Assembly (NCBI GenBank): GCA_024614665.1
Contig: GCA_024614665.1_4861.1
Direction: 5' to 3' (one strand)
Length of the DNA stretch: 64,000 nt
DNA from: a phage
Numbering within the stretch: position 1 is the stretch's first letter; every line of letters begins with the position of its first letter. The notes beneath the pieces are model-generated. The model saw only the letters and a program-made list of their open reading frames with translations. It was not told the DNA's origin and searched no databases. Of the stretch, positions 45,861-55,640 are shown one piece after another. A program made the position numbers and the translations under genes.

Positions 45861-46601
45861 TTACTTTAAGAGATGCAAGAAGCGTGCTGCCTGTTCTGTA
45901 AAGTGAAAATACTCGATGGTATCAGGTTCGTCCGAGTGAATGTCATCCGGGTCCAGCAGGTAGCCCGAGATATCATCCGTTAAAACCCAAGCGTCCCCTT
46001 GCAGGAAAATACCCATCGGTTTTTCTACCACGGGCATCACTAAGTCCGAATAAGAGTTACCTTCTGCTACCCTTACAATGTCTACACACGGGTCAACAAT
46101 ATACAGGTTGCAGAGACTGCGATCTTTAAGACTGCGATGAAACATCGCTCGATCGTACCAAATAACCTGAGAACAATTATCTTCGTCACCCGCCACATCG
46201 ACCAACTCTGTCCAGAAACGATGTAAGAACCAGTTCAACGCACCGGTTATTAGCTCGTTCGGTTTCAGCATTCTAACGTGTTCGTCGTACAACTCTTCCA
46301 TTGTCCAGATTCGACACTGCTCACGATCGATTGTCGGTAGGGGAGGTATTTGCGGCGGGACTTGTTTAGGCATCGGTTCATCACATCTTGCATTGTAACG
46401 CGCAATTGTTTCGGTAACCAGCTCTGCCACAACATCACAAGCCGCTTCAAATCCCCACTTGTACAACACGTCGTAATCTTCCATGGGCGCAGCACCGAAC
46501 TCACGGTTCGTTGCCATCCACGACATCCATCCGTATTGCTCCACACAGTTAATCAGACTTTGTGTGTGGAGCGTGAGCGATTCACTCACGACTCGCAACA
46601 T
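45861..46601 (-). CDS. hypothetical protein
   Basis: ORF; start placed at the ATG (MLRVVSESL) to avoid overlap with the RNase H gene. Confidence 0.5.
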   Translation of the reverse strand: MLRVVSESLTLHTQSLINCVEQYGWMSWMATNREFGAAPMEDYDVLYKWGFEAACDVVAELVTETIARYNARCDEPMPKQVPPQIPPLPTIDREQCRIWTMEELYDEHVRMLKPNELITGALNWFLHRFWTELVDVAGDEDNCSQVIWYDRAMFHRSLKDRSLCNLYIVDPCVDIVRVAEGNSYSDLVMPVVEKPMGIFLQGDAWVLTDDISGYLLDPDDIHSDEPDTIEYFHFTEQAARFLHLLK

Positions 46602-46602
46602 G

Positions 46603-48117
46603 TTACACCTCTTCTTCTCGCAGTATGCGACGGTTTGCGTAATACGCACACCACAACCCATGATACTCTTTACCGATATAGATTAAGAAGTAACGGATGT
46701 AGTATTTTTCAGGACGACACACCGCGATGTAATAACGGCCTTCCGGTTCTTTAATACGGTTGATTTCCGTACGCGATGGAATATCGATGCCGCGAGTCAA
46801 AATAACCGAGACAGGTCGTTTACCCATCGGAAAGTCAATCTTTAACGTTATTGACTTATCGACGCTACGGTAGTATTCCTTGACAGGTTTACCTTTGTCG
46901 TCGAATAGCAAGTCGGTAATGTCGTTTAAGACATAACCCTTTTCCTGATGCAGAACATCTCGCAACGTTGTAGCGAGTTCGTCACGAATATCCAGCGCAC
47001 GGTACGACAATAAGGGCGGGCGAAGCATTCTGGAGATGGCCAGGTCTTCAAAGAACCAGACATTGGAATCTTCTCCACTGAAATGCATCTTGTCTGCCGG
47101 TAATCCATCACCTGCCACATCAACGAACTTCTTACGTTTAACGAACTCATTGTTAACAACACCGATTGGATCATACTGCCGCATCTTCGGTGTATCTTTC
47201 CATGCCAGGGCGGCGTGGGTGTTTACAATCGTGTAGATGTTATCCCACGGTTGTTTAGTGAACATTACGGAAAAGTGTGCATCAGGAATCATTTTCCCAA
47301 TAAACACCAAGTCGTCCTTGTTCTTTGCATGGTTACCACCAAACATGTAATAGAAAGTTTCATCTTTCACTTTTACAGTAGGATGGTCCTCGTTCACCAA
47401 CGGATAGCAATATTTAACCGTACAAATCGGCGGATATGCCGCAAGGTTCATCCCAGCGGCGATGGGCTCGGGTTCCGCGGATGCAGGCAACTCATCTTTC
47501 GACCAGTACGGCTGATATGGAACGCCGTCGTTGGTCGCAGTGATAGCTGAACCTTTTCTAGCCAATTCGTCCGCCCGGTCGTTACCGTAGTGGCCGGAGT
47601 GTCCTTTGATTTTGATAACCTTAACACCCCGTCCTTCTTTTTTCATCTGCTGTTTGATTTCCCAGATACGAACAATAAGTTCTTTGTTCGCCAGCGGAGT
47701 ACCGTCAGCACGAACCCAACCACGTTTATGCCAGCCGTCTATCCACTCGTTAAAAGTGTTTACAACGTAACTGGCATCCACGTAGATGATATAGTTCTTC
47801 GCGCGGAAGGGTGCGTTCTCAAACAACGTGATGAAGGCGATTAACTCGCCCACATCTGAGTAGAACTCTTTCGGAACGGGAATAACGGCGTCGACAAATT
47901 GAACGGTGTCCGGCAACTCCGGACACTTCACATCCTGCGGCACTTTTTTGTATCCAACAGTGGTAATCCGTTCTGAAACACCCGGATGGCTATAAGCCTG
48001 ACTGTCTTCCAAATCTCCGTTGTTGAATAAATAACCATGAATACCAGCCCCCGAACCTTTCGGGGACTCAGTATGACTACCATCGGTATAAATAACCGCT
48101 ACGTCGACGTCTTTCAT
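46603..48117 (-). CDS. RNase HI-domain protein fused to a C-terminal domain of unknown function
   Basis: N-terminal 200 aa align to E. coli RNase HI as I remember it (VAVIYTDGS, YVDASYVVNTFNEWIDGWHKRGW, KGHSGHYGNDRADELA); about 300 additional C-terminal residues have no recognisable motif. Confidence 0.65.
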   Translation of the reverse strand: MKDVDVAVIYTDGSHTESPKGSGAGIHGYLFNNGDLEDSQAYSHPGVSERITTVGYKKVPQDVKCPELPDTVQFVDAVIPVPKEFYSDVGELIAFITLFENAPFRAKNYIIYVDASYVVNTFNEWIDGWHKRGWVRADGTPLANKELIVRIWEIKQQMKKEGRGVKVIKIKGHSGHYGNDRADELARKGSAITATNDGVPYQPYWSKDELPASAEPEPIAAGMNLAAYPPICTVKYCYPLVNEDHPTVKVKDETFYYMFGGNHAKNKDDLVFIGKMIPDAHFSVMFTKQPWDNIYTIVNTHAALAWKDTPKMRQYDPIGVVNNEFVKRKKFVDVAGDGLPADKMHFSGEDSNVWFFEDLAISRMLRPPLLSYRALDIRDELATTLRDVLHQEKGYVLNDITDLLFDDKGKPVKEYYRSVDKSITLKIDFPMGKRPVSVILTRGIDIPSRTEINRIKEPEGRYYIAVCRPEKYYIRYFLIYIGKEYHGLWCAYYANRRILREEEV

Positions 48118-48836
48118 TATTCTCCTCGCAACTGCGGTGGAATGTATTCACCTGTGCACATTTCGCGGTGGGCTTCTAACATGCGCTCGAAGCCGTACGT
48201 ACGCGCGACCAGGGCCAAATGATAGATGCGTGCCGTAGAATACGCTTCCTTCGCAGCATCAAAGCTAGCGTTATGCTCGTACGCTTCTTTGCCACGGGTC
48301 CAATGGTGCGCTTCTGCGTGCCAGTTAGGTTCCAGGCCAAACGCATATGCAATACGCTCTGCAGTCCGGTCAGAGTCCAATATAGAAAACTTGCGGTACT
48401 TGCCCGGCGGGATATCGCACTGCGCGAACGCGTTCATCAGAATTGGAGCATCGAAATCGGGACCGCGCATGGTGATAACCATTTTCACGTTGCCCAGATC
48501 ATCCAACCATTTTTTGGCCGCCCACAGTGCTTCTGGCAGTGGCGTGGTCCCAGAAAACGCTTCAACACGTGCTTTCTCGCTCGGTGCGTATTCGGGGTCG
48601 CCTTTACCTTCCCAATAGCCGACCGTTTGTGGATCGATGTAGAAGATTTCTTTTGCTTTTGCATCGTTAGGGTCGATTTTGTGGTAACACGAACCGATCA
48701 TTTTCATTGTCGGAACATCGAATGCCACGTTTGCCAACGTTAAGATGTAGGCATCTGGACGTAAAGCCAGGGTCTCTAAGTCTGTACCAACAACCACGGT
48801 TGGTGTTAAAACAGGCAGAATTTTAGGATAGGTCAT
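48117..48836 (-). CDS. DnaQ-like (DEDDh) 3'-5' exonuclease
   Basis: 239 aa; GTDLET (Exo I D-x-E), PDFDAPIL (Exo II) and HNASFD (Exo III H-x4-D) in the expected order. Confidence 0.6.
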   Translation of the reverse strand: MTYPKILPVLTPTVVVGTDLETLALRPDAYILTLANVAFDVPTMKMIGSCYHKIDPNDAKAKEIFYIDPQTVGYWEGKGDPEYAPSEKARVEAFSGTTPLPEALWAAKKWLDDLGNVKMVITMRGPDFDAPILMNAFAQCDIPPGKYRKFSILDSDRTAERIAYAFGLEPNWHAEAHHWTRGKEAYEHNASFDAAKEAYSTARIYHLALVARTYGFERMLEAHREMCTGEYIPPQLRGE

Positions 48837-48881: not shown

Positions 48882-48918
48882 TAAAAAAGGAAATCCCTCT
48901 TACCCGAAGGTAAGAGGG
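48882..48918 (-). terminator. intrinsic terminator
   Basis: Hairpin CCCTCTTAC CTTCGG GTAAGAGGG followed on the minus strand by ATTTCCTTTTTTAC. Confidence 0.6.
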
Positions 48919-54861: not shown

Positions 54862-54906
54862 TTATACTTTTCCGTTCCCAATCCGGGAAGACGGCGCGGA
54901 CGGCAT
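54862..54906 (-). CDS. possible 14-codon upstream ORF (leader peptide) before the endolysin gene
   Basis: AAGGAG then ATG CCG TCC GCG CCG TCT TCC CGG ATT GGG AAC GGA AAA GTA TAA, ending 19 nt before the endolysin ATG. Confidence 0.2.
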   Translation of the reverse strand: MPSAPSSRIGNGKV

Positions 54907-54929
54907 TGTGCTCCTTTGTAATGTGCCCT

Positions 54930-54947
54930 GATAATAATATCTATTTG
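54930..54947 (-). promoter_or_regulatory. AT-rich promoter-like element
   Basis: Minus-strand CAAATAGATATTATTATCAGGG overlapping the 3' end of the macrodomain gene, upstream of the endolysin region. Confidence 0.35.
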
Positions 54948-55441
54948 AAACTTTTTGGGATGATTTTCTCTGCTTCCCTCAGCAGGGTGTCTGGTAAATA
55001 GAATCGATAAGTCTGCTCCGTGTGCTGTAGTCGTTTCTGTAAGTGTATAAAGATTTCCAATCGCTCATGGTAACGTAACCAACCGTTAGCCATCCCTAGG
55101 GGCGGTATCGCAATCCCTCCTTCTAAGTCTTCCCCTAGTCGCGCCAGCGCATCAATGCCGGACGTGACATAGTAAATCTGCGATTTATAGCGAAAATGGG
55201 TTTTAGTAGGAAGGAGTATTACCCCTTCCTCAGGATAACAATAGACCTCACCGATAACGATTTGCTCTTTACGACATTTCTGGCGATAGTCGTTATAAAG
55301 CGATGGGAAGCGTTCTCGGCACGCCAAGGCAATGCCCCTTCCCATCGCACCAACACAGTTAACTGTAACGACCTTGAAGCGCTCAGGCGCGTTAAACAGG
55401 TCGTGGGAGATAATAGCCTCGTCGATCAGTTCGAGTGACAT
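54941..55441 (-). CDS. macrodomain protein, TARG1/DarG-like ADP-ribosyl hydrolase candidate
   Basis: 166 aa; DLFNAPERFKVVTVNCVGAMGRGIALACRERFP and IAIPPLGMANGWLRYHERL parallel human TARG1 segments [34 protein letters not shown] and LSMPRIGCGLDRLQWENV (from memory). Confidence 0.55.
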   Translation of the reverse strand: MSLELIDEAIISHDLFNAPERFKVVTVNCVGAMGRGIALACRERFPSLYNDYRQKCRKEQIVIGEVYCYPEEGVILLPTKTHFRYKSQIYYVTSGIDALARLGEDLEGGIAIPPLGMANGWLRYHERLEIFIHLQKRLQHTEQTYRFYLPDTLLREAEKIIPKSFK

Positions 55442-55640
55442 CTATTGCCATACCCCATTGTGAAATAACCGGAGACTGAAGCAGCGATTCCAGCTCAGTA
55501 AGAACTCTGGCTTTTGCTTCTTCGCGCAACTTACGGACTTCCGGATCAGGTTTGCCTGCGCCCAAATATTGGGGTTCTGTCTGCGGGGTAGGGAAACCAC
55601 AGAAAGAACTAACCATTATTCCGATGATTGTTTTTTGCAT
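55392..55640 (-). CDS. hypothetical small protein with hydrophobic N-terminus
   Basis: 82-aa ORF; overlaps the macrodomain gene start by 50 nt, so one of the two start calls may be wrong. Confidence 0.3.
   Translation of the reverse strand: MQKTIIGIMVSSFCGFPTPQTEPQYLGAGKPDPEVRKLREEAKARVLTELESLLQSPVISQWGMAIDVTRTDRRGYYLPRPV

Follow-up and report, generated by a model that had tools for sequence, protein, structure and literature searches.

We analysed a 64,000-nucleotide stretch of phage DNA (GenBank assembly GCA_024614665.1, contig GCA_024614665.1_4861.1; hereafter the window) in which two adjacent minus-strand genes encode a 504-amino-acid (aa) protein with an RNase HI domain and a 239-aa DEDDh 3'-5' exonuclease. 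We favour, with considerable confidence, the reading that the 504-aa protein is the SPN3US-clade orthologue of gp155 of phage PhiKZ and carries a polymerase-binding, clamp-derived domain, and that its DexA-type neighbour is an accessory and not a proofreader. Both open reading frames (ORFs) were confirmed, in the same direction, at the coordinates given in Table 1. Over 3.5 kilobases, the DNA is 99.2% identical to Salmonella phage SPN3US (a jumbo phage of the genus Seoulvirus, family Chimalliviridae) and to Proteus phage 7, and the SPN3US protein is identical to the 504-aa protein (100%, tblastn). The RefSeq names of the SPN3US products are 'ribonuclease' or 'putative ribonuclease H' (ACQ60_gp059, 504 aa) and '3'-5' exoribonuclease' (ACQ60_gp060, 239 aa). 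Domain architecture, catalytic residues, orthology, the clamp-like fold signal, gene order, phyletic distribution and the polymerase exonuclease motifs were computed here; polymerase binding, stimulation of synthesis, nuclear import and catalysis-independent essentiality are taken from the PhiKZ literature.

A preliminary description of the window, made from its letters alone, had recognised a canonical RNase HI core in the first 200 residues of the 504-aa protein, and this assignment is borne out. PF00075 matches aa 89-190 with an E-value of 8e-22 (78.4 bits for a cut-off of 25.8), and RNase HI chains in the PDB match the protein with E about 1e-12. In a three-way alignment that included PhiKZ gp155 and Escherichia coli RNase HI (the latter sequence verified against PDB 1rch/1rnh), residues D12/E91/D114/H173/D183 fall in register with D10/E48/D70/H124/D134 of the E. 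coli enzyme. The preliminary description had raised the possibility that a careful alignment would find the catalytic residues absent; all of them are present. They are invariant in 24 close homologues, the active-site residues are kept in 141-150 of 155 family representatives, and the secondary structure of the N-terminal domain in the AlphaFold2 (AF2) model follows the RNase H order of strands and helices. Judged by its sequence, the RNase HI domain is catalytically intact. Relative to the E. coli enzyme, ~45-57 residues are inserted between strands 2 and 3 (about aa 29-85; window ~47863-48033, minus strand). Extra beta-strands are predicted in this insertion (E42-44, E47-51), G55-Y56 and P80 within it are conserved in the family, and a shorter form of it occurs in PhiKZ gp155 too.

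The relationship to PhiKZ gp155 extends over the whole protein. The family phrog_3265 matches aa 1-504, full length (E 1e-189), and BLASTP aligns aa 5-493 with aa 3-475 of PHIKZ155 at 26% identity (E 4e-38). The C-terminal domain alone also aligns with gp155 (hhalign 97.4%, E 1e-11), and 98% of the query is covered by the match to PhiPA3 gp178, whose annotation notes its similarity to gp155. Gene order is shared as well: in phiKZ, PhiPA3, Deimos-Minion, FLC6, CR5 and pVp-JHP1101 a divergent virion-protein gene is followed by small ORFs and then by the orthologue of the 504-aa protein's gene.

A good deal is known about the PhiKZ protein. It was shown in vitro to be a bona fide RNase H, and it is indispensable both to the maturation of the nucleus and to the amplification of the genome; the catalytic mutant D102N is still able to complement (Gerovac et al., 2025; PMC12571901). 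In our alignment PhiKZ D102 corresponds to D114 of the 504-aa protein. The primer-removal role named in the preliminary description gains no support from this, the essential role of PhiKZ gp155 being independent of RNase H catalysis (PMC12571901). Under the name Nlp2, gp155 has also been described as a cargo imported into the phage nucleus via Imp1 (Kokontis et al.; bioRxiv 10.1101/2024.03.27.586873). These phages are without a classical sliding clamp and primase, yet all encode an RNase H1 (Iyer et al., 2021; PMC7824862). According to the abstract of a recent preprint, PhiKZ Rhc consists of an RNase H domain and a clamp-related domain; a single copy of Rhc binds both the emerging duplex and the thumb of the B-family polymerase, which is split into DNAP-N and DNAP-C, and Rhc strongly stimulates primer extension, as supported by cryo-electron microscopy and primer-extension data (Basu et al., 2026; PMC13648687). 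Rhc is very probably gp155, because the only other RNase H annotated in PhiKZ, PHIKZ199 (gp199), has 143 aa; as a candidate for Rhc we rejected PHIKZ199 on account of this size.

The same literature offers a different reading, in which the C-terminal domain would mainly be a docking or licensing module for nucleus import and maturation (Imp1/PicA) and its likeness to clamps would be incidental. Import of Nlp2 needs specific Imp1 surfaces (bioRxiv 10.1101/2024.03.27.586873), gp155 fused to green fluorescent protein forms a punctum at the nuclear periphery, and its knockdown blocks nucleus maturation though ChmA is made (PMC12571901). We nevertheless hold this reading to be very unlikely: the data summarised in the preprint abstract put Rhc on the polymerase thumb and on double-stranded DNA (PMC13648687), and a loss of DNA replication would alone prevent nucleus growth. 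Roles in import and in the replisome are, moreover, compatible.

The C-terminal domain was analysed as a separate unit. The full-length AlphaFold model has a predicted local distance difference test score (pLDDT) of 86, and each domain is confident, but the predicted template modelling score (pTM) of the whole is only 0.57; pLDDT falls to 54-72 in the linker at aa 196-219 and below 50 at residues 211-215. This stretch is variable and gapped among homologues, and the isoelectric point (pI) of aa 196-235 is 4.2. The drop in confidence at the acidic linker, ~196-219, and the low pTM of the whole protein indicate that the model consists of two flexibly joined domains. Modelled alone, the C-terminal domain reached a pLDDT of 84 and a pTM of 0.82. 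Sequence searches were negative for this region: no Pfam family matched aa ~220-504, 16 homologues gave only scattered sub-threshold C-terminal matches in Pfam, and a 16-sequence profile of the domain found no match in the PDB even at E<=10.

Fold searches covered the PDB and BFVD, and their outcomes are consistent with one another. With the C-terminal model as query, Foldseek placed PCNA and 9-1-1 on top (best E 4e-3, low TM-scores), and in BFVD chimallivirus 'ribonuclease H' proteins came first, followed by weaker matches to a phage beta clamp, herpesvirus processivity factors and giant-virus PCNA. Taken alone, these scores are suggestive, not conclusive, of a clamp relationship for the modelled domain. 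They were obtained independently, before the preprint was found, and the two agree. It is highly improbable that low-scoring fold searches have produced a spurious likeness and that the domain is a new alpha/beta nucleic-acid-binding fold without kinship to clamps, given that clamps were ranked first by two different algorithms, that clamp matches align 140-183 residues while ATP-grasp matches align about 90, and that, by the preprint abstract, an independent experimental group calls the domain of the PhiKZ orthologue clamp-related (PMC13648687). The preliminary description had seen no motif in these ~300 residues; this stands as far as Pfam and PDB sequence searches go, but the region can now be read as the sliding-clamp-related domain of Rhc/gp155.

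The domain defines a large and uniform family. A word-indexed search returned 24 homologue clusters, all of 503-516 aa and all with RNase_H, and an exhaustive search with a profile of the C-terminal domain retrieved 466 representatives at E<=1e-3, nearly all of 480-560 aa with the domain at the C-terminus; an N-terminal RNase_H was present in most of the family members sampled. The family-wide signature comprises P367, R373, D399-I-T401, K410, D445-x-P447-x-R449, W489, Y493 and N495, and the alignment of close homologues shows many additional invariant residues in the subfamily of the 504-aa protein. A few relatives differ in their N-terminal part. P0051 (585 aa) has a Macro domain at aa 1-104, then ~200 unassigned residues, ahead of its clamp-like C-terminal domain (hhalign 99.4%), and P0059 (579 aa) has ~265 unassigned N-terminal residues ahead of its own (hhalign 98.6%); no RNase H domain was detectable in either protein. 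Such architectures suggest that the clamp-like module is constant and the N-terminal enzyme exchangeable. In P0159 (675 aa) an I-TevI-type DNA-binding domain (aa 102-143) precedes the RNase H and clamp-like domains and may be a fused or mis-called homing-endonuclease remnant. BFVD also holds unnamed stand-alone phage proteins of ~235-250 aa that are structurally like the C-terminal domain, among them I1VX43 (233 aa, E 6e-10) and G4KKB4 (247 aa, E 4e-4); A0A8S5P0T1 and A0A8S5UFS5 are further examples. From their predicted structures, these may be free-standing clamp-derived modules in other large phages.

Put together with the PhiKZ work, these observations lead us to the following model. The C-terminal ~285 residues would form a sliding-clamp-derived domain, one copy of which would dock on the thumb of the split polymerase, as reported for PhiKZ Rhc. 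Once docked, the domain would hold the nascent duplex and so supply processivity from within the enzyme in phages for which neither a ring clamp nor a clamp loader is reported. Holding the duplex, in a mode like that of UL42 of herpes simplex virus (HSV), would be the essential function and, to judge from PhiKZ, independent of RNase H catalysis. The tethered RNase HI would act at the fork on the RNA of RNA-DNA hybrids, for instance primers or transcripts on the template. As in PhiKZ, the protein would be imported into the phage nucleus, and the translationally coupled upstream gene would supply a DexA-type DEDDh 3'-5' exonuclease as a clade-specific accessory.

The preliminary description had placed a DnaQ-like DEDDh exonuclease downstream of the RNase H gene. 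A separate exonuclease with an intact DEDDh site does lie in the same tight operon, but upstream, and it is of the DexA/Rv2179c type. The 239-aa protein matches PF16473 (Rv2179c-like; 35.8 bits for a cut-off of 27) and phrog_255 'exonuclease' (E 4.5e-53), PF00929 gave no match to it, and its residues D19, E21, D129, H188 and D193 are invariant across homologues of 29-48% identity. T4 DexA (PDB 8kel), likewise a member of PF16473, aligns with the 239-aa protein at 90.7% in hhalign (E 1e-6); it is itself an accessory exonuclease with no part in proofreading. The exonuclease gene is 5' of the Rhc gene, its TAA shares one base with the Rhc ATG (TAATG), and a GGAGAA motif stands just 5' of the overlap. 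Two divergent metagenomic contigs have the same overlap of exonuclease end and Rhc start, and the exonuclease, where present, is always directly upstream of Rhc. Its carriers are SPN3US-like phages, many Erwinia phages, Cronobacter phage CR5 and relatives, one Vibrio jumbo phage and some unrelated small phages. It was not found at the syntenic locus in phiKZ, PhiPA3, Deimos-Minion and FLC6; PhiKZ, PhiPA3 and phages of Agricanvirus and Chiangmaivirus have the same polymerase and Rhc, and in them the exonuclease was absent from the locus and tblastn was negative elsewhere too. The Asesino paper does not mention the localisation of the exonuclease, and a cytoplasmic 'putative exonuclease gp064' described in the RAY core-genome paper could not be tied to this family and was set aside.

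The nature of the polymerase bears directly on what this exonuclease does. SPN3US encodes, outside the window, a split B-family polymerase made of DNAP-N (gp222) and DNAP-C (gp248). The latter matches PF20286 divDNApol (divergent family B polymerase); gp222 is the PHIKZ082 orthologue and matches the N-terminal/exonuclease region of a family B polymerase (PolB) PHROG. Residues D152/E154 (Exo I), N262/D266 (Exo II) and Y395/D399 (Exo III) of gp222 are invariant in five orthologues of 25-34% identity. NCBIfam gave no match for either DNAP-N or the stand-alone exonuclease. Because gp222 keeps the Exo I-III motifs, the SPN3US polymerase is predicted to carry its own proofreading site, contrary to the suggestion in the preliminary description that the polymerase might lack an exonuclease domain. 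In gp222 (L008:41227-43008) an invariant D506-x-D508 ... Y513-P514 segment also resembles PolB motif A; if it is motif A, the natural split of the polymerase would fall after this motif, inside the palm.

One could still imagine that the RNase H removes primers and that the adjacent DEDDh enzyme is the trans-acting proofreader of an exonuclease-less polymerase, as E. coli epsilon is for Pol III. Its DEDDh site is intact, its translational coupling to Rhc is kept in phages whose exonucleases are only 30-46% identical, and Iyer et al. described the divergent polymerase as being without a fused 3'-5' exonuclease, with one encoded elsewhere (PMC7824862). That exonuclease 'encoded elsewhere' is best identified as DNAP-N (gp222/PHIKZ082), with its invariant Exo I-III site. 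A proofreading subunit would be expected to co-occur with the polymerase, yet the stand-alone exonuclease was found in 83 phage records and DNAP-N in 295, and most chimallivirus lineages with the same polymerase and Rhc are without it. It belongs to the DexA/Rv2179c and not to the DnaQ family; T4 has DexA, but proofreads with the polymerase's own domain. We give the trans-acting proofreader very little weight. Of the split primer-removal and proofreading module put forward in the preliminary description, the link to the replication machinery holds and the proofreading half is not supported, since DNAP-N has Exo I-III. Because DNAP-N keeps its own exonuclease site, the stand-alone enzyme is probably a clade-specific DexA-like accessory and not the polymerase's proofreader.

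Several points weigh against the picture of a gp155 orthologue with a clamp-derived domain and an accessory exonuclease. The abstract of the preprint gives no gene number, and Rhc is equated with gp155 by elimination. Identity to PhiKZ gp155 is only 26%, and the experiments concern PhiKZ and not the SPN3US protein. The C-terminal domain, with a net charge of +1 and a pI of 7.8, has no net positive charge, which is an uninformative proxy for DNA binding. Finally, the tight coupling of exonuclease and Rhc is conserved across 30-80% identity, and a pure 'accessory salvage nuclease' does not explain it. The exonuclease might, instead of being a free salvage enzyme, be an extra, stoichiometrically co-produced replisome subunit that docks on Rhc in the SPN3US/Erwinia/Derbicusvirus/Vibrio pVp-JHP1101 clade, a proposal that we regard as unlikely and for which the one hint is the 1-nucleotide stop/start overlap, conserved among exonucleases of only 30-46% identity. 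If true, the polymerase-clamp module would have three nucleases (the PolB exonuclease, RNase HI and the DexA-type 3'-5' exonuclease), and the third could trim 3' flaps or RNA 3' ends in the course of primer handling or recombination-dependent replication.

Table 1. Position of the Rhc-type gene, its domains and neighbouring features in the window.
Feature	Coordinates	Strand	Basis or remark
Rhc-type gene, 504 aa	46603..48117	-	RNase HI domain, flexible linker and sliding-clamp-related domain (predicted); PhiKZ gp155/Nlp2 orthologue
RNase HI domain, aa 1-195	47533..48117	-	PF00075; catalytic residues; AF2 strand/helix order
Acidic proline-rich linker, about aa 196-219	47461..47532	-	Low pLDDT; variable/gapped alignment
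C-terminal sliding-clamp-related domain (predicted), about aa 220-504	46606..47460	-	Family signature residues
DEDDh 3'-5' exonuclease, Rv2179c/T4 DexA family, 239 aa	48117..48836	-	PF16473; phrog_255; first gene of unit
Terminator-like hairpin	48895..48918	-	10-bp (base-pair) perfect stem, TTCG loop, T-run; putative function
Gene after Rhc, 246 aa, phrog_9472	45861..46601	-	RefSeq start; start 1 nucleotide past Rhc stop

The surroundings of the two genes are compact. The stop of the preceding gene (48925) and the start of the exonuclease gene flank the terminator-like hairpin; between the hairpin and the exonuclease ATG at 48836 lie AT-rich sequence and a Shine-Dalgarno-like motif, GGAGAG. 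Because this hairpin precedes the exonuclease gene, the transcription unit appears to begin with the exonuclease, the hairpin marking its 5' boundary. The palindrome also scores as a terminator on the plus strand and could work in both directions. A scan for sigma-70 promoters gave no enrichment over shuffles and was disregarded because these phages use their own RNA polymerases. On the other side, the stop of Rhc is followed by one base and then by the ATG of the phrog_9472 gene. The longest ORF for this gene (45861-46661, minus strand) overlaps Rhc by 59 nucleotides; the phrog_9472 match starts at residue 21 of this longer ORF and RefSeq starts the gene at 46601, so that the gene probably has the shorter form. 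Elsewhere the window holds, as judged by homology to SPN3US, genes (at ~54900-55450 and elsewhere) for a macro-domain protein, an SMC/SbcC-like protein, MazG, thymidylate synthase, an HD-domain protein, RNA polymerase beta/beta' fragments, tail sheath and fibre. Several of the SPFM phage records (LR535903-LR535917) match the region only in dozens of short pieces and yield shortened or odd 'hypothetical proteins' (P0025-P0029), which looks like the product of frameshift-rich assemblies and not like biology.

Much of this finding is already known: public SPN3US records annotate the gene, its family is counted among the core genes of chimalliviruses, and the preprint abstract has just reported what kind of C-terminal domain the PhiKZ orthologue carries (PMC13648687). 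The unannotated domain that had been flagged from the sequence alone is thus a real functional module, already resolved in the literature. Two things remain new: the family variants in which the clamp-like domain has other N-terminal modules, and the clade-specific DexA-like exonuclease with its translational coupling. Chimalliviruses, the nucleus-forming jumbo phages, were long believed to replicate without a sliding clamp or primase, and the RNase H-clamp fusion would fill the place of the missing processivity factor; an 'RNase H' gene would be essential even when catalytically dead because its clamp-like domain acts as that factor. The same solution would operate in enterobacterial jumbo phages, which are under development for Salmonella and Erwinia biocontrol, and the signature residues (DIT ... 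DxPxR) and the clade-specific exonuclease partner could guide mutagenesis.

Compared with known systems, the locus is closest to that of PhiKZ, with which it shares the two-domain architecture, a full-length alignment, the genomic neighbourhood, the phage family and the split PolB partners; the SPN3US protein differs in being 22 residues longer and in forming a distinct subfamily, and PhiKZ is without the translationally coupled DexA-like exonuclease that precedes SPN3US Rhc. To E. coli RNase HI the protein has about 34% identity over the domain, and it keeps all five active-site residues as well as the segment of the basic protrusion; unlike the E. coli enzyme, the SPN3US protein has the strand 2-3 insertion and is covalently tethered to a 285-aa domain, and catalysis is dispensable for the essential function of its PhiKZ orthologue (PMC12571901). 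The exonuclease shares the DxE ... RGxxFDxPIL ... Hx4D motifs with T4 DexA and Mycobacterium tuberculosis Rv2179c (PF16473), whereas its resemblance to T4 DexA can be traced no further than the first ~115 columns and coupling to an Rhc gene is unique to the enzyme described here.

Sliding clamps and viral processivity factors (PCNA, 9-1-1, T4 gp45, the African swine fever virus clamp, HSV UL42, human cytomegalovirus UL44 and Kaposi's sarcoma-associated herpesvirus PF-8) are the best structural matches of the C-terminal domain and have the role proposed for it, holding duplex DNA behind the polymerase, although the structural scores are low and the sequences show no resemblance. Because the preprint abstract reports a single Rhc subunit that acts with the polymerase thumb and forms no closed ring (PMC13648687), and because no clamp loader is reported in these phages (PMC7824862), we do not file the domain as a canonical ring clamp; in mode of action HSV UL42 is the closest. 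The archaeal and eukaryotic PCNA-RNase HII and PCNA-FEN1 complexes (for example PDB 3p83 and 1rxm), both entries being among the Foldseek matches through their PCNA chains, resemble the proposed arrangement in that a clamp keeps an RNA-removing nuclease at the fork. In those complexes the nuclease, either a flap endonuclease or an RNase H of type 2, binds non-covalently through a PIP motif, whereas in the SPN3US protein the RNase H is of type 1 and shares one polypeptide with the clamp-like domain.

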